DNA of 64,000 bases from positions 89 through 64,088 of IMG/VR virus record IMGVR_UViG_3300028024_000008. One strand, given 5' to 3'. Positions 6,166 through 64,000 of this stretch are shown here, one piece after another. The stretch is from a virus. Below the pieces are notes generated by a model. It did not search any database and was not told the DNA's origin. It was given only the letters and a program-made list of their open reading frames with translations. The translations under genes and the position numbers were made by a program. Every line of letters starts with the position of its first letter. The stretch's first letter is position 1.

Positions 6166-6557
6166 AGGCCACCCGCCCGCGCGGTGGCCCGCTGGATCTG
6201 CGAGAGCAGGGCGGGGATGCCTTCCTGCAGCGCGTTATCCTCGAAGCCGGAGATGAAGCTTTCTGCCGCCTGCAGCGCCCTCAGCATCTCCGCCTCGATC
6301 GGCCGATCGGCCTCCGTCACCGGTTCGGCGACGGCCTCGCGCAAGGTCTGCTCGGCCTCGGCGATGAAGGAAGCATTACTGGCACCGCCGATCTGCCGAA
6401 GCCGGTCGGTCAGGTTTTCGAGGGTGCGATAGAGCTGCTCGCCGTGGCCGCGAACGCGCCGCGCCAGCTCGGCATCCTTGGCGCGGGCTGCGATCATCTC
6501 GGCCTGCGGGATCTTGCCGTCATAGGAGGAATGGAGGCAGTCGACATAGCTGATCAT
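6162..6557 (-). CDS. Hypothetical protein
   Basis: ATGA-coupled ORF. Confidence 0.6.
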   Translation of the reverse strand: MISYVDCLHSSYDGKIPQAEMIAARAKDAELARRVRGHGEQLYRTLENLTDRLRQIGGASNASFIAEAEQTLREAVAEPVTEADRPIEAEMLRALQAAESFISGFEDNALQEGIPALLSQIQRATARAGGL

Positions 6558-6757
6558 GCAGCCACCTCGGGCTTGAGCGCCTGCGCGGTGACGACGGCAT
6601 CGCTCAGGATCTTGATAAGCTGCAGGGCATCCGGAACGTCGAGAAAGATCGTGAGATCTCGGCTAGCGGTAAGCTGGATGCGCGGCTCGCCCTGCCGGTT
6701 GAGATAGGTCTTCGCCTCGGTGATGCGCCCTTCGGCGCTCGTCATTGCGCTAATCAT
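6554..6757 (-). CDS. Hypothetical protein
   Basis: ATGA-coupled ORF. Confidence 0.55.
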   Translation of the reverse strand: MISAMTSAEGRITEAKTYLNRQGEPRIQLTASRDLTIFLDVPDALQLIKILSDAVVTAQALKPEVAA

Positions 6758-6981
6758 GCGACGGCTCCCGCGGCTTCGACCCGCGCCAGGCGCTGCGCCT
6801 CGAGCCGGCGCGCCGCTTCCAGGGCCCGCGGCAGCTCATGCAGCAGGTTGGCGGTCTCTTCGATGCTGAGATGAAGCGCGAAGTGCCCGAGGCTTTCGAG
6901 CGCGACGCTGGCCGGCGATTGGAGGATCTGGCTGGCCCGGGCCATGACCGGCCCCGTTGTCTGGGTGGTGCAAGTCGCCAT
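6754..6981 (-). CDS. First gene of the PL operon, hypothetical
   Basis: GGAGGG RBS upstream; ATGA-coupled downstream. Confidence 0.6.
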   Translation of the reverse strand: MATCTTQTTGPVMARASQILQSPASVALESLGHFALHLSIEETANLLHELPRALEAARRLEAQRLARVEAAGAVA

Positions 6982-7350: not shown

Positions 7351-8319
7351 TCAAATCATGCGGAGATCGGTGATCTTATAGATGCCCACGACTTTCGCGC
7401 GGTCGATCTTGACAGATTGTTCGGGGTTCAATTGGAGCAATTCGACATAGGTGTCCGTCTTGCGGACGAATTGCTTCACGATGGCCAGATGATCCTGCAG
7501 CTCGACGACGACATCGTCGCCCGCTCGCGCCGGCAGCCTCGGATCAAGGATAACCGTCTCGCCAGGCCGAAACCTTGGCAGCATGCTTTCGAAGGCAACG
7601 AGCAAACCTGCCGCTTTCTCGACGCCGGCTAGGCGCGCTGGCCGTTCGACATACATGACAGGATTTTGATAATCGATCTCCGCACCGTCGAAACTGCCCT
7701 TCACCGAGCCGAAGACCGGCAGATCGTTGGTGGCCATGTCCACCTCTCTCGTCAGGGTTAGATCAAAGTCTCCCCTGCGCATAATATGCTGAAATATATC
7801 AGATTTTGACGAACTCCGTTCCATCGTATCCACATCCCCAAGATCTTGTTTGCGAAGATCAGAGGGCTCCAGGCCTAATAGACCGGCAAGTTTAATTCCC
7901 TCCTCTTCGGGTAGGACTGTGGACATGGAATTATTAATATATTCTCGCAAATAGGTTTCATGTCTCCCAATGCCGAGAGACAGGGTGTCGAGCTCGTAGC
8001 CGAGTGCCTCGGCTCGATCGGCGATCAATTTTCCTACGGCACTGGGCGGCATTGGCTGCGGCGCGCCATCGGCTGGCGCATCTTCGCCGAGCAATACATG
8101 CATCGGCACACCCTCGGACCTCGACAGCTTGTCATAGGTCTCCACCTGCATGCTCAGGGTTTTGCCCTTGAGGAAGTCCCGAACAGTCGACGCAGAGACC
8201 TTAGCCCGGACGCAAATAGCATTCTGGGAACCCCTTCCCGCCTTTCGCTGGACGGCGAAGAATTTCTTCAGGGCCAATCTGCGCTCTATCGCGCTAATTC
8301 CTCGATTCTTTTCGGGCAT
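7351..8319 (-). CDS. cI: CI-like repressor: two HTH domains plus C-terminal S24 peptidase
   Basis: LLVAFESMLPRFRPGETVILDP...GDDVVV...IVKQFV...VELLQLNP S24 signature; divergent from cro. Confidence 0.9.
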   Translation of the reverse strand: MPEKNRGISAIERRLALKKFFAVQRKAGRGSQNAICVRAKVSASTVRDFLKGKTLSMQVETYDKLSRSEGVPMHVLLGEDAPADGAPQPMPPSAVGKLIADRAEALGYELDTLSLGIGRHETYLREYINNSMSTVLPEEEGIKLAGLLGLEPSDLRKQDLGDVDTMERSSSKSDIFQHIMRRGDFDLTLTREVDMATNDLPVFGSVKGSFDGAEIDYQNPVMYVERPARLAGVEKAAGLLVAFESMLPRFRPGETVILDPRLPARAGDDVVVELQDHLAIVKQFVRKTDTYVELLQLNPEQSVKIDRAKVVGIYKITDLRMI

Positions 8320-19387: not shown

Positions 19388-19840
19388 ATGACGCAGCCAA
19401 GGCGCAAGCGAGGCAGGCCAGCGTTCAAGCCGACCGCTGCGATGCGCCGGACGGTCGAGCGCATGATGGCCTGCGGCGACAGCAAGGACACGATTAGCCG
19501 AGCGATCGGCTGCAGCATCCCGACGCTGGAACAGCACTTCGAGAACGAGCTGAAAAACGGCTACGCGAAGAAGCGCCAGGAAGTGCTGAACATGATGTTC
19601 GAAGGTGCGCGTAAGGGCAATGCCGCGCTGATCAAGCGCCTCGAGGAGATGACCCGGGCGGCATTGCCCTTCGATGAGCCGGCTGCAGCAGCTGACAAGC
19701 CTGATGCCGCGGCGGCCGTTCCCCAGGGTGGTAAACCGAAGGGTAAGAAGGAACAGCAGCGGGCTGAAGCCCTGGCCGCCGGCGTCAATTCCGAATGGGG
19801 CGATGACCTGGCGCCGCTGCCGGGAACCCGGCCGAATTGA
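19388..19840 (+). CDS. terS: Terminase small subunit
   Basis: RGRPAFKPT N-terminus and HTH; coupled to terL. Confidence 0.8.
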   Translation: MTQPRRKRGRPAFKPTAAMRRTVERMMACGDSKDTISRAIGCSIPTLEQHFENELKNGYAKKRQEVLNMMFEGARKGNAALIKRLEEMTRAALPFDEPAAAADKPDAAAAVPQGGKPKGKKEQQRAEALAAGVNSEWGDDLAPLPGTRPN

Positions 19841-21549
19841 TCACCTGGACGACTGCTAGGCCTGACTGGGAACAGCGGATCATTGCCCGGGAAAGCCTTT
19901 TGCCGGACGGTCTGCCGATAGATCGGCACCGAGCAGCAAAGGCCCTTCGGATCTTCAAGCGGCTGAAGGTCTCCGATATCCCCGGGAAGCCGACGCTTGG
20001 CGAGTGCTGCCCGGAATGGATATTTGATCTCGTCTGGGTCGTCTTCGGTTGCTTCGACTCAGAACTGAAGCGCCAGCTGATCCGCCAGATCTTCGTGTTG
20101 ATCAGCAAGAAGAACGGCAAGAGCACGATCGCCGCCGGCATCATGATGACAGCGCTCATCATGAATGAGCGTGCGATGGGCGAATTCTTGATCCTGGCGC
20201 CGACCAAGGATGTCGCCGATAACAGTTTCGATCCCGCCTATGGGATGGTGATGGAGGACAGCGCACTTCTTGCGAGGTTCAAGCCCTCGAATGTAATGCG
20301 CGAGATCGTTAACCGGCTGGACGGATCGAAGTTGATCGTCAAGTCGGCCGATGCCGATGTCGTCGGCGGCACGAAGGCGACTGCGGTATTCATCGACGAG
20401 CTTTGGCTGTTCGGCAAGAAGCTGCAGGCAGCGAATATCCTGTCGGAGGCGACCGGCTCGCAGGCCTCGCGGCCGGAAGGCTTCGTCATCTATGCGACGA
20501 CGCAAAGCGACGAGCAGCCGGCGGGCGTCTTCAAGCAGAAGCTCAAATACTTCCGCGCCGTGCGCGATGGCAAGATCGATGATCCGACATCGTTGCCGCT
20601 GATCTATGAATATCCAGAGGCGATGGTCAAGGCGAAGGCCTATCAGGACCGGACAACCTGGTATATCCCAAATCCGAGCCTCGGGAAGTCTGTCGACGAA
20701 CAGTGGCTGATAACCACATTCGCGCAGAAACAGCAGGAAGGCCCGGGCGAGGCCAGCCTGTTCATTGCCAAGCATTTCAATGTCGAATCCGGCCTCGGGC
20801 TGAAATCCGACGATTGGGTCGGCGCGAACCATTGGGAAGCGGCGGCAGATGTTGCGCTCACGCTGGAAGAGCTGCTTGACCGCAGTGAGGTCGTAACGGC
20901 CGGGATCGATGGCGGCGGCCTTGATGATCTGCTCGGCCTGGCGATCCTGGGCAGGGAGCGCGACACGCGCCGCTGGCTGCTCTGGATCCATGCATGGGCT
21001 CACCCGACGGTTTTGGAGCGGCGGACCGATATCGCCACCAAACTGAAAGACTATGAGGAGAACGGCGACCTCACTCTGATCGAGGAGGTCGGTGAGGACA
21101 TCGAGGCACTGTGCCAGATACTGGACCGGGTCAATGATACCGGGCTGTTCCCAGAGAAGGACGGGATCGGCGTGGACCCGGCTGGGATCACCGAGATCGT
21201 CGATGCGCTGGAGTTGCGCGGCTTCTCTGCCGGCGGCGAGGGCGGCGAAGATGCCAACATCGTGGCGATCAGGCAGGGCTGGACGCTGACAATGACGATC
21301 AAGACCGTTGAACGGAAGCTCGCCGGCAAGAAGTTTGTTCACGGCGGGACACCGCTCATGAACTGGTGCGTCAGCAATGCCAAAGTTGTCCCGGCCGGCA
21401 ATGCGATCACGATCACGAAACAGGCGGCCGGCTCGGCGAAAATCGACCCGTTGATGGCGACCTTCGATGCCGCGGCATGCATGGCCAAGAATCCGGTGGC
21501 TGGCGGCCGCTTCATCTACAACGAGCGCGACGCAATCATCCTTGCTTGA
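19837..21549 (+). CDS. terL: Terminase large subunit
   Basis: Walker A ISKKNGKST, Walker B VFIDELW, nuclease GIDGGGLDDL and KIDPLMA. Confidence 0.95.
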   Translation: MITWTTARPDWEQRIIARESLLPDGLPIDRHRAAKALRIFKRLKVSDIPGKPTLGECCPEWIFDLVWVVFGCFDSELKRQLIRQIFVLISKKNGKSTIAAGIMMTALIMNERAMGEFLILAPTKDVADNSFDPAYGMVMEDSALLARFKPSNVMREIVNRLDGSKLIVKSADADVVGGTKATAVFIDELWLFGKKLQAANILSEATGSQASRPEGFVIYATTQSDEQPAGVFKQKLKYFRAVRDGKIDDPTSLPLIYEYPEAMVKAKAYQDRTTWYIPNPSLGKSVDEQWLITTFAQKQQEGPGEASLFIAKHFNVESGLGLKSDDWVGANHWEAAADVALTLEELLDRSEVVTAGIDGGGLDDLLGLAILGRERDTRRWLLWIHAWAHPTVLERRTDIATKLKDYEENGDLTLIEEVGEDIEALCQILDRVNDTGLFPEKDGIGVDPAGITEIVDALELRGFSAGGEGGEDANIVAIRQGWTLTMTIKTVERKLAGKKFVHGGTPLMNWCVSNAKVVPAGNAITITKQAAGSAKIDPLMATFDAAACMAKNPVAGGRFIYNERDAIILA

Positions 21550-52122: not shown

Positions 52123-52320
52123 AAGGTGCGACAATGGGCTGAGGAAAAGGTGCGGAATGCTGGGACATTCGCCGACTGTCGCACTCTCGCTAAGCGGCTG
52201 ATTTTCTTCAATTGTGGCATGCCGTCCCTGGGCACCATCGCATTTCCAAGCATTTGAAAACGCTTCACTTTGTGCCGGCTTTTGTCGCACCTTTCGTGAA
52301 CTGCGCTTCAGGTGCGACAA
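52123..52320. other. attP: core CCGTCCCTGGGCACCA (52222-52237, a tRNA 3' end) flanked by integrase arm-type repeats AGGTGCGACAA
   Basis: Repeats at 52123-52134, 52147-52157, 52177-52185 (inverted), 52282-52293 (inverted) and 52310-52320; adjacent to the integrase 3' end. Confidence 0.8.
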
Positions 52321-53416
52321 TCTCGTTCTCTTTTGGTGCCTCGCGGCTGAGATATTTCATGCCGCTGGCGGCCAGCTTATTGCGGTTCGCCTTGCGGGTA
52401 TAGACCGCTGCTTGCTTCGGGCTTTCCCAGCCATAGATCGCCATCAGCTGGTATTCGGTAGCGCCGTTGTTCGCCGCGATCGTGGCGCCCGCCTTGCGCA
52501 ATCCATGCGCCGAGCAGCCGATCAGTCCCGCAAGGCGGCATTGCCTGCCGAACCAGTTGCCGAAGCCACCATGTGAGTAGGCCTTGCCGTGGTCGGTGAC
52601 GAGATAGGTCAGATGATTATTCGGCGTCGCGTCGAGCACTTGCTGCAGCTCAGGCAGCACCGGAATGAAGCGCTCCTTCAGCACCCGCTTGCGACCCTTC
52701 CATTCTCTGAAATGGAGGACGGGACCGCAATATTCTTCCATCTCGATATGTTTTGCCATTTGCCGCCCGAGCTTGATGACGTCTGACCGCCGCACGCCGG
52801 TAAAGAGCAATAGAGCCATCGCCAGGCGCGGCTTGGTTCCGATCGGCCAGCGCTTCTCGAACTGTGCGATCTCCTCAAGAGTCCAGGTATGGAACCCCTC
52901 GGGATTGTTGCTTTCCAGATAAGGCACGTCGGCCGCCGGGTTGGCCTCGGCGTATTCCATGGCGATTGCCCATTTGAAGACCTGCCGCAGCGCCTTGATG
53001 AAGCTGTTCGCCGCCTCTGGCCGGCTCGACATGGCGTCACGGTCCTGGCGTAGGTTCCGGGCCCGGAGTGGCTTGAAGGGCAGGTGGCCGTCTCGCTGGC
53101 TGAATTTCTCCAGGATCAGCTTCCGGGCATGCTGTGTCGCCGGCTCGAGGGTCTTGAATTCGGCGCTCTTGTAATACTCGGTCAGCAGCCACGCCAGGGT
53201 GCCACTGGCGGGCGCCAGGGCTTTCTTGGGCAATCCAAGGCCATTGGCGGCCCGGAACTCCAGCGCCTGCAGGCCGTCCTTGTAGCTCTGAAGGAAGGCG
53301 GTTGTGCCTGGCGCGCCCTTGACCCGGATCCGCTTGCCATGGCGCCTGACATACCATTTCTCGTTCCCGTGCCGATCGGTCTCATGGGAGAGATAGGGAA
53401 GGTCGATCTGGGTCAT
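52265..53416 (-). CDS. int: Tyrosine integrase
   Basis: FTGVRRSD, SAHGLRKAGAT and YGWES...AVY catalytic residues. Confidence 0.95.
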   Translation of the reverse strand: MTQIDLPYLSHETDRHGNEKWYVRRHGKRIRVKGAPGTTAFLQSYKDGLQALEFRAANGLGLPKKALAPASGTLAWLLTEYYKSAEFKTLEPATQHARKLILEKFSQRDGHLPFKPLRARNLRQDRDAMSSRPEAANSFIKALRQVFKWAIAMEYAEANPAADVPYLESNNPEGFHTWTLEEIAQFEKRWPIGTKPRLAMALLLFTGVRRSDVIKLGRQMAKHIEMEEYCGPVLHFREWKGRKRVLKERFIPVLPELQQVLDATPNNHLTYLVTDHGKAYSHGGFGNWFGRQCRLAGLIGCSAHGLRKAGATIAANNGATEYQLMAIYGWESPKQAAVYTRKANRNKLAASGMKYLSREAPKENEIVAPEAQFTKGATKAGTK

Positions 53417-53664
53417 CGCTTGTCCCAAGGGTTTTCCTCCTCGGAAGTTGGCAACGCGGAAAAGGCGGCGTCAAGGGCCAGCCGATCCCATATGACGCGA
53501 GTGTTAACCTTTTTGGCCTCCGGCATCCGGCCGTCTTTAACCATTTCATCGAAGAGGCTGGGCGAGACGCCGATATAGGCCGCCGCCTCGACGCGGGAAA
53601 GACCGCGGGGCGGGCAGGAGGCCGGCAGGATGTCAGCGCGGCGGCGCGGCGCCTCGACGTTCAC
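53413..53664 (-). CDS. xis: Excisionase (AlpA/MerR-like HTH)
   Basis: RGLSRVEAAAYIGVSPSLFDEMVKDGRMP; coupled to int. Confidence 0.85.
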   Translation of the reverse strand: MNVEAPRRRADILPASCPPRGLSRVEAAAYIGVSPSLFDEMVKDGRMPEAKKVNTRVIWDRLALDAAFSALPTSEEENPWDKR

Positions 53665-57115: not shown

Positions 57116-57488
57116 TGCGAACATACTCCCCATAGCCGACGCGCCGAATTGCATTGCGCCGGGCCAAATATGAAAAGGCGTTATAGACGTGCTTACGCTT
57201 GGTGGCATCGCCCTCACTGTTCACTTGGCGCATGAAGTCAGCGACGCGGATTGTCCCGTCGCATTGGCTGATGAAATCACGGGCCTTCATGGCGATGTCA
57301 GTCAACGCCATGCCGTCTAGAGAAGGAGCCCTTAATCGTTTAATCTCGTCATCCTGCCGCATCACCATCGCCAGCAGAGCCTCAATAGCCTTGGCCGCTT
57401 CATTGATACACGGCACCCAATCACGTTGGCGCAGGAACTTTACCAGTCGCTCCAATTCTTCGATCTCTTGCGCGGTGAGGCCGGTCAT
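57108..57488 (-). CDS. Hypothetical protein with winged-helix-like C-terminus
   Basis: VYNAFSYLARRNAIRRVGYGEY. Confidence 0.55.
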   Translation of the reverse strand: MTGLTAQEIEELERLVKFLRQRDWVPCINEAAKAIEALLAMVMRQDDEIKRLRAPSLDGMALTDIAMKARDFISQCDGTIRVADFMRQVNSEGDATKRKHVYNAFSYLARRNAIRRVGYGEYVRNG

Positions 57489-57784
57489 GATTGCACACCT
57501 GTTAAAAGATAGTCGGTCGTGACGTTCAAATACTTGGCGATTTTGACCAAGCTGTCGAAGCCGATGCTGTTAGATTTGTTGTTGACCAGGCGCCATGCAA
57601 CACCGTGCGAGATATCGCATTCGACCTCTAGCGCCTTGATAGTAAGGCCGCGCTCAGAGAGCAATCTTGCGACACGTCCGCCTGGGGTATCAGGAAATGA
57701 CGCCGATATCCCTTCGCCGCAGTGCGGGCATCTCATCGTCTCAACTCCCTGCGCAGCTGCGCTGCTTGGCGTCGTTTCAGGCAT
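57485..57784 (-). CDS. XRE-family HTH regulator with N-terminal CPHCG
   Basis: LLSERGLTIKALEVEC...LVKIAKYLNVTTDYLL. Confidence 0.8.
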   Translation of the reverse strand: MPETTPSSAAAQGVETMRCPHCGEGISASFPDTPGGRVARLLSERGLTIKALEVECDISHGVAWRLVNNKSNSIGFDSLVKIAKYLNVTTDYLLTGVQS

Positions 57785-57884
57785 TCCGCCTCAGTGTCGT
57801 ATCCGCACGCCTCACGCCAGATCAGCCATGCCAGATAGCCGCTGTTGAGCAGTAGATACGGCAGGCCGATGGCGAGAGAGGGGA

Positions 57885-58163
57885 TCATCCGATGCCTCCT
57901 GCTCGCTCAATCGCCTGTATGCGGATACGCTCCCAGGCATGGTCCGCAATCATCTGGCACCGCTCCAAAGTTTCACCTTGAACGCCACGCTTGATGAGGC
58001 GATTGGCGCGGCTGTACCTTTTCCGATGATGAGCATCGCCGAGCCGCCAATGCTTCCAGCAGATGATGCGGGTCCCTTCCTCGTACTTCGCCTTTGGAGC
58101 GGTACGGCGGCAGAACGGCACCTCGCAGGCGATGCGGTCGGGCTTGGTCATGGAAACAGCCAA
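57885..58163 (-). CDS. Hypothetical Cys/His protein
   Basis: CEVPFC and ICWKHW. Confidence 0.6.
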   Translation of the reverse strand: MAVSMTKPDRIACEVPFCRRTAPKAKYEEGTRIICWKHWRLGDAHHRKRYSRANRLIKRGVQGETLERCQMIADHAWERIRIQAIERAGGIG

Positions 58164-59851
58164 TCTGCTGCTTTGACCGTCCCGCGCCCGCTGGGCTCGA
58201 TCAACCCATAGGCGGCAACGGCCGACATATAGACCCCGGCCGTGCTGGCAGTCGGCGACAGCCCAACACTTTCAGCAACGGCATCCCGGCGGATATCCTT
58301 CGGCCAGGCACGATAGATGACATCGAAGACACGCTGCTCCTGAGCGCCTAAAAGACCGCGCGCCATTTGATAGAGATCTTCGCGCGTCGTCGCCGTCGGC
58401 ATGTTTGCCGCCTTCAGCCCTGCCGGCGTCAGCGCGATCTTGCCGGGCGATGTTTCGAGCAGTCCTGCTTTGACCAGCTGCGAGACGTAGACGCCGAAGG
58501 TGGAAGCCTTCGGACTATAGCCGGCAACGACACAGGCCCTATCACGGTCGGCTGGATCCTGGCCGATCTTGCGCCACCAGGCGACTGCGTCGAGGACGCG
58601 CTGCTGTGCCGGCGTGATGCCTTCGCTGGGAGGATTGGAGCGGACGACGGGACTCGAACCCGCGACACTCGGCTTGGAAGGCCGATGCTCTACCGACTGA
58701 GCTGCGTCCGCTTTGTGAGTTGGCACCTTCATCGGCGATGGTGCGCCGCGACGCTCTCCTGGCACCACATGGTTGCCATCATAGTAATCGAGATGCCCAC
58801 GGACCCGCTTCAGGAGTTCGTCCCACCCGCCAACATATCCCTCGTTATAAGCGCCAAGGCGCATGGCATCGATCTCGGCCTGAGATATGGATGGCACCGA
58901 TACCTGTGCCGGCGCAGCCTTCAACTGCTTCTCCAGCTCGGCAACGCGTCGCCGCAATGCGACCGGATCATCTGCCTCAGCCGCCTTCACGGCATCACCG
59001 ATCAATGCCCGCAGCTTCTCAGGATCGACCTGAGCGGTCTTGACCTCATGCCGATGATCGTCATCGGTCGGGGTGGCGCTGTTGTCATAGGTCGTGATGC
59101 GCGGGAACTTGACGAGATCGGCGATATTGGCCTCCCCGGATATCACCCAGCCTTCACCGGTCTTGAGGCCGGCCAGCGAGCGGGAGACCTTCTCGGCAAC
59201 GTCCTTGGCGACGTTTCCCCGCAGCCATTCCTTGACCGGCGTCTGATCGGCCGGCAGCGTCAGCCGGTGCGCGATAAGCGTCTCGCAGCTGCCGAGCACG
59301 GCATTGTGCAGCGATTGGGTCCGCTGCGTCACCACCACCAGGCGAATGCCCTTCGACCGGCCGGCAGTTGCCAGCTTCTTCGCGAAGTGGATGGTCAGGT
59401 TCTCGCCGCCGAAGCCCGCCCGTTCTTTCGGGGCGAATTCGTGCGCCTCCTCGATGACCAGGTAGAGGATACCGCGCATCTTCCGCAACAGGGCCGGTGC
59501 GAATTCCGTGAAGAAGGTCTGCAGGCCGCCCGGCTTGAAATCGGCCATGTCGATGATACTCAGCGGCAGGTCACCACCGGCCACCAGCTCGCCGATCGGC
59601 TTGCCCGCCGTCTCCTGGATCTGCACATGGCCGTGCGGGCCGCCCAGGATCTGGAATGGCAGGCCTGGGCGCTTGCCGTCGGCGCTTGACGTCAGGCCCC
59701 ACCAGTCGGACTTGATCGGGTCCAGAATGCACACCCGGGCGCCCTGGGCCACGACATGCTCGACCAGCAGCTTGGCGGTCGAGGTCTTGCCCGAGCCAGT
59801 CTTCCCGACCACAGCAGTATGCTGGCCGATGATCTCCTTGAAGATCTTCAT
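58148..59851 (-). CDS. HerA/FtsK-superfamily (DUF87-like) ATPase with C-terminal winged-helix-like domains
   Basis: Walker A VGKTGSGKT, Walker B LVIEEAHEFAP, GRSKGIRLVVVTQR. Confidence 0.88.
   Translation of the reverse strand: MKIFKEIIGQHTAVVGKTGSGKTSTAKLLVEHVVAQGARVCILDPIKSDWWGLTSSADGKRPGLPFQILGGPHGHVQIQETAGKPIGELVAGGDLPLSIIDMADFKPGGLQTFFTEFAPALLRKMRGILYLVIEEAHEFAPKERAGFGGENLTIHFAKKLATAGRSKGIRLVVVTQRTQSLHNAVLGSCETLIAHRLTLPADQTPVKEWLRGNVAKDVAEKVSRSLAGLKTGEGWVISGEANIADLVKFPRITTYDNSATPTDDDHRHEVKTAQVDPEKLRALIGDAVKAAEADDPVALRRRVAELEKQLKAAPAQVSVPSISQAEIDAMRLGAYNEGYVGGWDELLKRVRGHLDYYDGNHVVPGERRGAPSPMKVPTHKADAAQSVEHRPSKPSVAGSSPVVRSNPPSEGITPAQQRVLDAVAWWRKIGQDPADRDRACVVAGYSPKASTFGVYVSQLVKAGLLETSPGKIALTPAGLKAANMPTATTREDLYQMARGLLGAQEQRVFDVIYRAWPKDIRRDAVAESVGLSPTASTAGVYMSAVAAYGLIEPSGRGTVKAADWLFP
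58636..58711 (-). tRNA. tRNA-Gly(UCC), 76 nt with encoded CCA, nested inside the ATPase CDS
   Basis: GCGGACG CA GCTC AGTCGGTA GAGC A TCGGC CTTCCAA GCCGA GTGTC GCGGG TTCGAGT CCCGT CGTCCGC T CCA: all four stems pair (one G-U), discriminator U73; the one noted deviation is C at position 8. Confidence 0.88.
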
Positions 59852-60150
59852 CCGTTCCCCTTTGTCGGCATGTACCGTGCCTCGAATTCCTTGATGAAGC
59901 CGTCCAGCTCGGCCTGGATCAGCGCCAGGCGGTTGAGATCGCCATCGGTGGCGTCGTCGCCATCATCGAGCGTGCGCAACAGCGTCGCGAAGACATGCTG
60001 GGCGCCAGCAAAGAAGGCGGTCCGCATCTCTGCGAGCTGGATGGCGGGCGCGTCGGTCGGGATCGTCATCACGCGCAGGCTGTGCCAGCCGGCCTCAATC
60101 AGCTTGCCGCTATTGGCAAGCTCGCGTTCCAGTTCTTCAATCTGGCTCAT
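59848..60150 (-). CDS. Hypothetical conserved phage protein
   Basis: QLAEMRTAFFAGAQHVF. Confidence 0.65.
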   Translation of the reverse strand: MSQIEELERELANSGKLIEAGWHSLRVMTIPTDAPAIQLAEMRTAFFAGAQHVFATLLRTLDDGDDATDGDLNRLALIQAELDGFIKEFEARYMPTKGNG

Positions 60151-60545
60151 GCAGCCTCCTGTAAGCCGGCTCGTTCCCGGCGATCTTCCAGCCGCGCGAG
60201 TGTCTCCAATCGCACAGCAATCGACTGATGCAGGCGGCCAAGACGACGGCCGATCTCCATATTGTTGACGCCCTGCTTGGCGAGAGCGAGAAGCTCGGCA
60301 TCTTCCTCCGGACTGAACCGGCGGATCGTCCGGTCCCGGCATTTTATGACGGGCTTGCCCCGATAGGCCGGGGCGACAATCGCGGGCGGTCTCCCCTCGA
60401 CCTCGATCACATAATGCCGGCAGGCATATTCGACTGTCGAATGAGAGCGGCCGATCTTCCGACCGATCCGCTCATAGGACCAGCCTCGGCCGCGCAGCTC
60501 TTCGATGGCGGCGATCTCTGCTTCGCTCAGTCGTTTGCGTGTCAT
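60147..60545 (-). CDS. Tandem HTH (Myb/GcrA-like) protein
   Basis: GWSYERIGRKIGRSHSTV and FSPEEDAELL...EIGRRLGR. Confidence 0.7.
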   Translation of the reverse strand: MTRKRLSEAEIAAIEELRGRGWSYERIGRKIGRSHSTVEYACRHYVIEVEGRPPAIVAPAYRGKPVIKCRDRTIRRFSPEEDAELLALAKQGVNNMEIGRRLGRLHQSIAVRLETLARLEDRRERAGLQEAA

Positions 60546-60859
60546 GCCCGCTTCTCCCGCTGAGCCATTCTGACCGCCTGGCGGCCGATCTCGGTAATGA
60601 ACCACTCGGCCGAATAGTCGCTGTCATTGACCCAGGTAAAGAGTCCGATGCCGGCCACACTGCGCCGAGCTTCACGCCGCACCAGGCCGCGCCAGTAAAG
60701 AGCACGGATGACCCGCATCGGGTACAGATGGCCGATAGGATTTCGCTTCGGCCGCCGGCCGGTGCGCGGGTCTGCCGAGCTGAGGCAGAGCAGCATCGCG
60801 TCGCTAAGCTGCAGGTCGACCTTGCCGCCGGCGGGGAAGGGGATGATTTGGGCTGTCAT
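60542..60859 (-). CDS. Hypothetical protein
   Basis: ATGA-coupled. Confidence 0.55.
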   Translation of the reverse strand: MTAQIIPFPAGGKVDLQLSDAMLLCLSSADPRTGRRPKRNPIGHLYPMRVIRALYWRGLVRREARRSVAGIGLFTWVNDSDYSAEWFITEIGRQAVRMAQREKRA

Positions 60860-61290
60860 TGCTTTGCCATCCTGTCATAGAGAACGACATTCGCCGTCGC
60901 AGCGAGATTCATGCACGCTGCAGTGGGGATGGAGATCAAGTCCCGGCATCGTTCGGTTAAATGTCGCGGCAAGGAGCCGTCCTCCGGCCCGAAAATATAG
61001 AAGGCCCGTTCCGGGTGACGATATCGAAAGAGCGAGCGTGCTGAAGGATCGATCTCGACGGCAACCGGAACGCAATCGTGTGGCAATGCGCCAAGCAGAT
61101 CGGCGACATGAAGTGTCGGTATATGCCGCCGGGCATCGGTTGTGTCCGAGGCCTGCCTGCGGTATCGGTGTCCCTGGATGACGATCAGGGATGCGCTATA
61201 GCAAAAGGCCGCGCGCATCACGCCACCGACATTGTGGTCAGTCTTCGGATTGAAAAGGCCGATTGCGGCGAAACCACGGCCACGCATCAT
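60856..61290 (-). CDS. SPOUT (TrmH/TrmL-like) RNA 2'-O-methyltransferase
   Basis: PKTDHNVGGVMRAA, FGPEDGSL and ISIP...MNLAATANVVLYDR. Confidence 0.85.
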   Translation of the reverse strand: MMRGRGFAAIGLFNPKTDHNVGGVMRAAFCYSASLIVIQGHRYRRQASDTTDARRHIPTLHVADLLGALPHDCVPVAVEIDPSARSLFRYRHPERAFYIFGPEDGSLPRHLTERCRDLISIPTAACMNLAATANVVLYDRMAKQ

Positions 61291-63296: not shown

Positions 63297-64000
63297 TCAG
63301 GTCTCGATCTGCGGATAATACTGCTTGCCGGTCAGCCCGAATGTGCTGGCGATGGCGTTACGTGCCGTAAGCTTCTGCGGATCGCCGAATTGCTGATCTG
63401 CGAGCAGGGGCCGGCATTCCGGATGGACGCGGAGCGTGTAACGCTTCCAGCTGCCATCTGGCTCAGGCGTCGAATTGATGACATGGACCATGACGAGCGG
63501 CTCATCATCGCGGACATTCTTGCGATAGAGCGTGCCGACGCCTTCTTCGTGATCGAGGATCTCGGCACTGCCGGCGAGTAGGTATTTGTCGAAGCCGAAG
63601 CGCTCCATCATGACGCGCCGGACCTCGGCGTTCTGCTCGGCATCGATCAGGTCGACCGTGATGCGCTCCGGATGCAGGATGATCCAGTCCGGAACGCGGA
63701 CGCCGTGCCAGGAATAGACGCCCCAGCCATCACGATATTCGATCGCGGCGCGGTCTTCGCAATGGAGCCGGCCTTGATCATCGCGCGCCAGGTGGCGCGG
63801 CCGATCGGTTACGAGACAGACTTTCTCCATCGGCCAGAACCAGCCGGCCGACTGCGTCAGCTCGATCAGGCCGACAAGACGCTCGGTCTGCTGGACCAGG
63901 GCGCAATTCTGGCGGAAAAAGTCATAGAAACCGGTCCAGTTGCCATCGTGTTGGCCGTAACCGGCCGCCCGCACGCTGGCCCCCACGCTGTCCCACACGC
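63297..64000 (-). CDS. C-terminal part of the DUF6745-like protein (continuation of 433->1)
   Basis: SVWDSVGASVRAAGYGQHDGNW...GRLHCEDRAAIEYRDGWGVYSWHGV...NAEVRRVMMERFG. Confidence 0.85.
   Translation of the reverse strand, partial: VWDSVGASVRAAGYGQHDGNWTGFYDFFRQNCALVQQTERLVGLIELTQSAGWFWPMEKVCLVTDRPRHLARDDQGRLHCEDRAAIEYRDGWGVYSWHGVRVPDWIILHPERITVDLIDAEQNAEVRRVMMERFGFDKYLLAGSAEILDHEEGVGTLYRKNVRDDEPLVMVHVINSTPEPDGSWKRYTLRVHPECRPLLADQQFGDPQKLTARNAIASTFGLTGKQYYPQIET

Follow-up and report, generated by a model that had tools for sequence, protein, structure and literature searches.

Within the 64,000-nucleotide stretch of viral DNA analyzed here (the window; positions 89 to 64,088 of IMG/VR record IMGVR_UViG_3300028024_000008), a complete transfer RNA (tRNA) sequence, tRNA-Gly(UCC), is contained, in the sense orientation and in frame, in P0001, a gene for a HerA/FtsK-type ATPase. 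Taken together, the comparisons described below suggest to us, with a probability of roughly 0.6, that this is a genuine, working phage tRNA gene placed within the coding sequence of an early gene, where it would be co-transcribed with the operon and released by cleavage that sacrifices the mRNA, the linker codons that it occupies being tolerant of sequence change. The same 76 bases appear to serve both as tRNA and as protein code, with selection acting on both.

A Complete tRNA in Frame with an ATPase Gene

ARAGORN reports one tRNA only in the window, a tRNA-Gly with the anticodon tcc at 58636-58711 (-), and Rfam RF00005 matches 58639-58711 (-) over the full model (1-71) at 68.9 bits (E 6.3e-13; gathering score 29 bits) with no non-standard pairs flagged. 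The bacterial GlyRS identity set, which comprises G1-C72, C2-G71, G3-C70, U73, C35, and C36, is present in its entirety along with the anticodon UCC, as are the bases that support the tertiary fold (A14, G18 G19, U33, G53 U54 U55 C56, A58, and C61). Position 8 is a C. A preliminary description of this DNA, made from the sequence alone and naming ARAGORN scoring as a check, had described a complete tRNA-Gly(UCC) with a paired cloverleaf, glycine identity elements, and an encoded CCA, in which only U8 is changed to C and which follows an A-rich leader. Both programs and the sequence itself are in good agreement with this, and the bases directly before G1 are ACTCACAAA.

Base 1 of the tRNA is also the first base of codon 381 of the open reading frame (ORF) 58148-59851 (-), a frame offset of 0, and this ORF is the sole long frame through the tRNA. 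Translation of the tRNA stretch in the ORF frame gives ADAAQSVEHRPSKPSVAGSSPVVRS, the peptide originally stated, and the sense-strand nesting without stop codons is confirmed; ADAAQSVEHRPSKPSVAGSSPVVR is a peptide of the predicted ATPase gene product. The gene and its parts are arranged as follows.

58148..59851, minus strand: P0001, 567 amino acids, HerA/FtsK-type ATPase with a coiled coil, a disordered linker, and two winged-helix-like repeats (ORF, Pfam, AlphaFold2, Foldseek)
59102..59851, minus strand: HerA-type P-loop ATPase domain, approximately residues 1-250, with the Walker A motif GKTGSGKT (Pfam, Foldseek, model)
58775..59023, minus strand: probable coiled coil formed by long helices, residues 277-359 (AlphaFold2 secondary structure)
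58613..58786, minus strand: hypervariable, predicted disordered interdomain linker, residues 356-413, which holds the tRNA (predicted local distance difference test score, pLDDT; unalignable between homologs)
58636..58711, minus strand: tRNA-Gly(UCC), 76 nt with encoded CCA, in frame, coding for residues 381-405 and the first base of codon 406 (ARAGORN, Rfam)
58430..58612, minus strand: winged-helix-like repeat 1, residues 414-474, with a conserved AWW motif (model pLDDT 78-93; ratio of nonsynonymous to synonymous substitution rates, dN/dS, 0.06-0.10 versus the homologs at loci L006 and L004)
58169..58384, minus strand: winged-helix-like repeat 2, residues 490-561 (model, alignment, dN/dS)

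The N-terminus is matched in Pfam by DUF87/HerA at 39.6 bits (cutoff 23.2), and HerA_C matches the protein at 25.9 bits (cutoff 22). We built an AlphaFold2 model of P0001 on 19 homologs, with which Foldseek retrieves HerA (4d2i, E 3.5e-11) and also the STIV2 B204 NTPase, at a template modeling score of ∼0.7 by target. In this model residues 356-406 are unstructured (pLDDT 28-47), the tRNA-encoded residues 381-405 fall inside that segment, and two confident helix-turn-helix-plus-hairpin repeats occupy residues 414-474 and 490-561. The three methods agree with the earlier assignment of the tRNA codons to the linker between a HerA-like ATPase with its coiled coil and a C-terminal winged-helix region.

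Nested tRNAs in Related Genes

Full-length homologs of P0001 number more than 1000; the majority derive from soil metagenomes or from genomes of Bradyrhizobium and its relatives. When they are aligned, conservation is seen in the ATPase and in the C-terminal repeats, and the linker is hypervariable in both length and sequence. In the four closest homologs the unusual linker peptide recurs as ADVAQ..VEHRPSKPNVAGSNPVVRS, which is the tRNA read in this frame. The DNA of these four homologs and of 150 other loci was screened with ARAGORN, and a complete tRNA was found in the homologous linker of 11 distinct genes, the window included. All are ARAGORN calls on the sense strand.

Gly-UCC, six genes: the window, L003 (= L055, L071), L006 (= L141), L070, L150, and L152 (= L153)
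Arg-UCU, one gene: L005, 1642-1717
Arg-CCG, two genes: L004 and L151 (1721-1796)
Lys-UUU, one gene: L154, 3029-3104
Gln-UUG, 74 nt, one gene: L009

Every one of these tRNAs lies inside a long open frame, and ten of them share the codon phase of the window; the 74-nt Gln copy is in another phase. The relatives' nested tRNAs score 59.7-76.7 bits with Rfam, on a level with the 66.9 bits of a genuine tRNA-Val of a host that was searched alongside them. An assembly artifact can be eliminated as the source of the arrangement because it occurs in independent assemblies from ENA, Logan, JGI, IMG/VR, and NCBI.

The nested tRNA is a minority feature of the family. Unbiased scans of the collections put its frequency at ∼4-5% of genes and a protein list gives 9 of 121, and the ratio of 11 in 98 is an overestimate because 6 of the 11 tRNA-bearing genes were chosen by their peptide signature; overall, approximately 5-10% of the family carries a tRNA and about 90% lacks one. 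Ordinary intergenic tRNAs occur near the gene in some tRNA-less relatives, namely, a Ser/Thr/His cluster at L078 (6105-6406, minus strand) and Thr-CGU and Met-CAU at L015 (549-621, plus strand) and L086 (6010-6082, plus strand), so this group of phages also holds tRNAs in the usual way. A permuted, two-piece transfer-messenger RNA (tmRNA) gene with the tag ANDNTFAGADRVAA lies at L054 (= L073), 6545-6941 (-), ∼1.8 kb downstream of a tRNA-less homolog, and is a possible marker of where that prophage integrated.

Selection on the tRNA as RNA

The tRNA stands out as an island of conservation within the gene. Between the window and L003, 85-90% of DNA positions agree in the ATPase domain but only 30-45% in the 250 nt that precede the tRNA; in the tRNA itself the identity is 93%, and beyond it the value is lower again. 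The comparison of L003 with L006 gives 67% for the ATPase, 55% upstream, 95% for the tRNA, 52% downstream, and 53% for the C-terminus. Among Gly-type pairs generally, the tRNA is 80-95% identical and the 120 nt upstream 48-59% identical, the latter being the floor of the aligner. The similarity between copies spans exactly G1 to A76.

Pairing was counted in the ten 76-nt copies, with the 74-nt tRNA-Gln left out. The cloverleaf is paired in 96.7% of cells, and both sides have changed in 11 of 21 pairs; the observed value is reached by 0 of 500 shuffles, and controls slid along the sequence are 37-52% paired. Within the Gly type alone, the anticodon stem occurs as TCGGC/GCCGA, TCTGC/GCAGA, TCACG/CGTGA, and GCGGG/CCCGC. 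The positions that are invariant in the ten copies are C13, A14, G18, A21, U33, A38, G53, U55, C56, G57, A58, C61, and the CCA end, and G19 and U54 are each found in nine of the ten. As we read the alignment of the close Gly-type copies, the changes do not build up at third codon positions, so it is not the peptide itself that is conserved. The preliminary description had proposed looking in homologs for conservation and for compensatory changes in the stems. Both are present, with a tRNA at this position in 11 distinct genes and far better conservation of the tRNA than of its flanks, and they argue that in this family the tRNA has been kept by selection as an RNA.

Translation through the tRNA

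The C-terminal repeats encoded behind the tRNA have dN/dS values of 0.06-0.16 at a synonymous divergence (dS) of ∼0.7-1.2. In three genes, those of the window, L070, and L151, the 50 codons that follow the tRNA contain no in-frame ATG, GTG, or TTG. Because the C-terminal domain is selected strongly at the protein level and in these three genes has no nearby start of its own, the tRNA segment would have to be read through by ribosomes. All 12 loci (11 distinct genes) keep a continuous frame even though neither 76 nor 74 is a multiple of 3, and the predicted proteins have a median length of 575 amino acids with the tRNA versus 573 without it; the equal medians indicate that the tRNA takes the place of the linker and is not added to it. 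On these comparisons the tRNA-encoded residues appear to belong to the translated protein. At one locus (L006, 1498-4284) the frame with the ATPase and the nested tRNA extends over 928 codons from stop to stop, with an apparent long N-terminal extension; this gene is also a very long branch on the ATPase tree.

History of the tRNA-Bearing Linker

In a tree of the ATPase domain with 113 distinct rows, the window, L003, L005, L006, and L070 form one small clade, and the other six tRNA-bearing genes are scattered as singletons among tRNA-less kin. Parsimony requires seven changes in tRNA presence, of which at least four are forced by well-supported branches. The window gene is itself a three-part mosaic, in which the ATPase is closest to that of L003 (87% DNA identity), with which the tRNA is also shared, and the C-terminal winged-helix pair is closest to those of L006 (82%) and L004 (75%), and in approximately one-fifth of the family an unrelated C-terminal module follows the coiled coil. 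Because the genes are mosaics, repeated insertion of tRNAs and transfer of linkers by recombination are indistinguishable on the tree.

Comparison of individual copies gives some indication of how the tRNAs have changed. The copy at L005 is otherwise near the Gly-UCC type but has the anticodon UCU and A20 in the D-loop. A20 is an arginine identity element, and the two differences would be coherent with a shift to arginine identity. The Arg-CCG copy at L151 and the Lys-UUU copy at L154 have common flanking codons (..LTYK[AS][ST] before the tRNA and NG.. after it) and related acceptor stems but different anticodon arms, which suggests that the anticodon arm was exchanged or remodeled in place. 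The Gln copy has the features of a typical tRNA-Gln and was clearly acquired separately. Overall, the tRNAs in this position appear to have been remodeled or swapped in place and sometimes to be decaying.

Phage and Operon Context

The window is a temperate phage; the IMG/VR record is 64.3 kb in length and is rated 75% complete. The following genes are recognized from protein annotation.

7351-8319, minus strand: S24-type repressor
19837-21549, plus strand: large terminase (TerL), canonical
52265-53428, minus strand: tyrosine integrase

Because the canonical TerL is encoded separately, the ATPase is not the terminase of this phage. The ATPase gene sits in a tightly packed, leftward early operon, and its own start overlaps the stop of the preceding gene. 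We searched 57800-60400 for promoter-like and terminator-like sites and found none, which fits co-transcription of the tRNA with the operon. A search of the linker for origin-like iterons likewise found none, with only short two-copy repeats present. When near relatives were sought among sequenced phages, only the tRNA itself was matched, at ∼80% identity to a Pseudomonas phage tRNA-Gly.

Several other genes share the early operon with the ATPase gene. Approximately 1 kb upstream, at 60856-61290 (-), is a minimal SpoU/SPOUT RNA 2′-O-methyltransferase of 144 amino acids (Pfam PF00588, 60.6 bits). A link between this methylase and the nested tRNA was considered and rejected because the methylase is missing from all nine of the other tRNA-bearing loci whose upstream DNA extends for 1.5 kb or more; a homolog with 43% identity lies beside one tRNA-less homolog (L017 = L084 = L130). 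Small helix-turn-helix (HTH) proteins flank the ATPase gene, one at 60147-60605 (-), which matches HTH_38 (E 4e-13), and a Cro/C1-type protein at 57485-57784 (-), which matches HTH_26 (E 1e-7). A DUF6745 protein is encoded at 63297-63998 (-) and has a homolog in the same operon of L003.

Proposed Mechanism and Alternatives

We propose that, once the phage has infected a cell or been induced, the tRNA would be produced as part of the leftward early transcript. Co-transcription with the early message is suggested by the lack of a promoter of its own and by a direction that is always that of the operon. The same 76 bases would then either be read by ribosomes as a filler linker peptide or, when uncovered by the ribosome, fold in the transcript as a tRNA, to be cut at G1 by RNase P and trimmed by 3′ nucleases to the encoded CCA. 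The 5′ piece of the cut transcript would be a non-stop message. Since RNase P cleavage leaves a transcript unable to encode full-length ATPase, each RNA molecule would yield either the tRNA or the protein, a competition that would be a by-product and not necessarily a designed switch.

The tRNA would probably do what other phage tRNAs do, either supplementing the decoding of rare A-ending codons or standing in for host tRNAs that anticodon nucleases have destroyed. Of the five anticodons, four (UCC, UCU, UUU, and UUG) begin with U34 and read A-ending codons that are rare in this phage, in which GGA makes up 8.9% of Gly codons, AGA 4.3% of Arg codons, AAA 26.7% of Lys codons, and CAA 19.2% of Gln codons. 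The share of GGA among Gly codons is 11.2% in early-strand genes versus 7.6% in late-strand genes. In Escherichia coli the tRNAs with these four anticodons belong to the xm5U34 class, and several anticodon nucleases target that class, which we take only as a lead toward the second of these roles.

A number of observations weigh against a working tRNA gene. The U at position 8 is near-universal in tRNAs, and the window has C8 where the relatives have T in 10 of 10 copies; judged from this base, the window copy may be impaired, and its activity is less certain than that of the copies at L003 or L150. Stem mismatches are found in four relatives, at C11-A24 and A29-C41 in L006, at A3-C70 and A5-C68 of the acceptor stem in L005, at U7-C66 in L070, and at C11-A24 in L152, which has G54 in addition. 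Part of the covariation stems from the comparison of different tRNA species and not from change in place. When a model of the nested tRNA is applied to tRNA-less linkers, sense-strand matches of 13-15.6 bits are obtained at L087 (1514-1591), L018 (1368-1432), and L116 (3883-3930), all on the plus strand. These matches retain the acceptor stem, NCCA, and parts of the arms, and the one in L087 aligns lengthwise with the L004 tRNA. All three are probably nested tRNAs that have decayed, although GC-rich composition may inflate such weak matches. Decay in three homologs would mean that selection is intermittent. A search for sequencing runs that contain this DNA listed one DNA run, of a soil metagenome, and none of RNA. 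Finally, GGA accounts for only 8.9% of phage Gly codons, and codon compensation is no more than a possible function.

The preliminary description had gone further and proposed that each transcript gives either ATPase or mature tRNA, making tRNA processing a switch. The either/or logic is a fair deduction, since geometry forces it on each transcript if the tRNA is processed as RNase P would process it, and the same model has been proposed for selC in selB (PMC8124441). The purposeful switch, in which the tRNA would be kept mainly as a cis-regulatory device with RNase P cleavage setting the amount of full-length ATPase, finds no such support and seems to us improbable. The arrangement does recur in the family, but ∼90% of the members do without it, and copies decay in some lineages. 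The varied identity of the tRNA (Gly, Arg, Lys, Gln) indicates no specific tie to the protein, and there is no functional pairing like that of SelB with tRNA-Sec. A cleavage signal alone would also need no identity elements, anticodon loop, or CCA, yet conservation covers the whole mature tRNA. The same objection meets a structural element that would act in the mRNA without tRNA release, for instance by pausing ribosomes between domains or by stabilizing the transcript. A strong conserved structure exactly at the domain boundary is what such an element would look like; pausing, however, needs no anticodon loop, T-loop, discriminator, or CCA, and G18, U33, G53, U55, C56, A58, C61, and CCA do not vary among the ten 76-nt copies. 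The position is occupied by complete tRNAs of different species, and we consider this explanation very unlikely.

Other explanations concern the origin of the tRNA. A neutral passenger that was inserted into a tolerant linker at a recombination junction, is unused now, and has simply not yet decayed would account for C8 in the window copy, for the mismatches in L006, L005, L070, and L152, for the probable remnants in L087, L018, and L116, and for a gene whose three parts have different histories. A neutral insert in a hypervariable linker should, however, have vanished at dS ∼1, and every copy still scores 60-77 bits. Between several pairs no other segment of the gene is as well conserved as the tRNA, with both flanks at background identity, and the anticodon-stem changes among the Gly-type copies are compensatory. 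We therefore think it unlikely that the tRNA is a relic. The earlier suggestion of a recently captured relic fails for the family in view of the conservation island and may still apply to this one copy with C8. A fresh copy of a host tRNA, or gene conversion from one, is weakened as a source because the best matches to the tRNA are 79-82% identical in five host-like genomes, the metagenome-assembled genome that carries the L055 prophage and four Bradyrhizobium/Reyranella genomes, which may not include the host of the window phage.

Integrases commonly target tRNA genes, and the nested tRNA could be supposed to be an attachment (att)-like target or a patch of homology for exchange of the ATPase and DNA-binding modules. 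The N-terminus nearest L003 (87%) and the C-terminus nearest L006 and L004 (75-82%) do place a crossover in or near the linker. Against this, the tRNA is complete, the whole virus record holds no second copy of it or its flanks, even partial (the best other match is 14 nt, as expected by chance), the integrase is more than 5 kb away, and the region beside the integrase contains no tRNA fragment. The gene and its tRNA are intact in the integrated prophages L003 and L150 (175-kb and 330-kb contigs), which together with the foregoing eliminates an attachment site. The L003 prophage ends at an intact tRNA-Val(GAC) (66.9 bits) beside its integrase, and the nested tRNA is a Gly, so for L003 tRNA-dependent lysogeny is also rejected, there being no disrupted tRNA-Gly. 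Both flanks of the tRNA are diverged, which places the crossovers elsewhere than at its edges, and tRNA-less members are equally hypervariable in the linker and have swapped C-terminal modules too. A role in recombination, which the preliminary description had listed as a secondary recombination site, is thus highly improbable.

A bolder version of the working-gene reading is that the linker is a standing slot, in which tRNAs are swapped or given new anticodons in place, released by RNase P from the early mRNA, and used as spare decoders against anticodon nucleases, with loss of the ATPase message tuning the protein dose. The swaps would be exemplified by the passage from Gly-UCC to Arg-UCU with gain of A20 and by Arg-CCG versus Lys-UUU between shared flanks. 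We offer this version only tentatively and regard it as doubtful in full.

Comparison with Known Systems

The closest precedent is selC, the gene for tRNA-Sec, which is nested in the selB ORF of Alphaproteobacteria (Mukai 2021, Int J Mol Sci 22:4605; PMC8124441); that paper describes itself as the first to report such nesting for a bacterial ORF. In the model proposed there, tRNA processing leaves a non-stop mRNA, and tRNA and full-length protein are alternatives (PMC8124441). As in the present case, a whole sense-strand tRNA lies in an uninterrupted, translated ORF, the CCA is often encoded, and remnant tRNAs are found in some lineages; both cases rest on bioinformatics only. The differences are substantial. 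The selC sequence lies at the end of its ORF, where it encodes a C-terminal extension, whereas the tRNAs described here are in midgene between folded domains, where read-through is needed for a conserved domain. There the tRNA is always tRNA-Sec, a physical partner of the host protein; here it is an ordinary elongator of varied identity with no evident tie to the protein, and the host is a phage. In a full-text literature search for published nested tRNA genes, selB/selC was the only bacterial case. What is new compared with the published work is the midgene interdomain position, the ordinary elongators, the several identities in one slot, the phage host, and the lack of a tie between tRNA and protein.

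In the subcluster K4 mycobacteriophage Fionnbharth, a tRNA-Lys overlaps the 3′ end of gene 37 and is involved in tRNA-dependent lysogeny (PMC10865867). There, too, a tRNA of a temperate phage overlaps a coding gene and lengthens the protein by tRNA-encoded residues. The overlap in Fionnbharth is at the 3′ end only, where it adds 18 residues, and the tRNA replaces a host tRNA of the same type that is destroyed by integration, whereas the related prophage L003 lies beside an intact tRNA-Val. Three further papers connect phage tRNAs with codon compensation and with escape from tRNA-cleaving defenses (PMC10264068, PMC11464382, PMC11555353). Like such ordinary phage tRNAs, the nested ones are canonical, most of their anticodons decode codons ending in A, a rare type in GC-rich genomes, and the set includes types attacked by known anticodon nucleases, such as Lys-UUU. 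Ordinary phage tRNAs, in contrast, are intergenic and often clustered; the nested ones are inside a translated frame, and each is the sole tRNA found in its own phage record. A parallel of another kind is the O gene of phage lambda, in which the replication origin with its iterons lies inside the linker-coding part. In both cases a cis-acting element occupies the flexible-linker codons of an early phage DNA-binding protein, so that one stretch serves two purposes; that of lambda is a DNA site with iterons, whereas here it is an RNA gene in a linker in which no iterons were found.

Implications

This case extends the nesting of selC in selB to elongator tRNAs, to phages, and to a midgene site through which the ribosome must read. 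A tRNA call inside an ORF is usually treated as an error by gene finders and curators, and one of the two is deleted. Since both readings of the sequence appear to be selected here, such loci are probably under-annotated and counts of phage tRNAs too low; if the linker were indeed a standing slot, protein-coding linkers would be a general and overlooked home for phage tRNA genes. The changing anticodons at this position (Gly, Arg, Lys, Gln) offer a rare view of the turnover of tRNA identity at one genomic site, and the family provides a natural system for competition between translation and tRNA processing on one RNA molecule.

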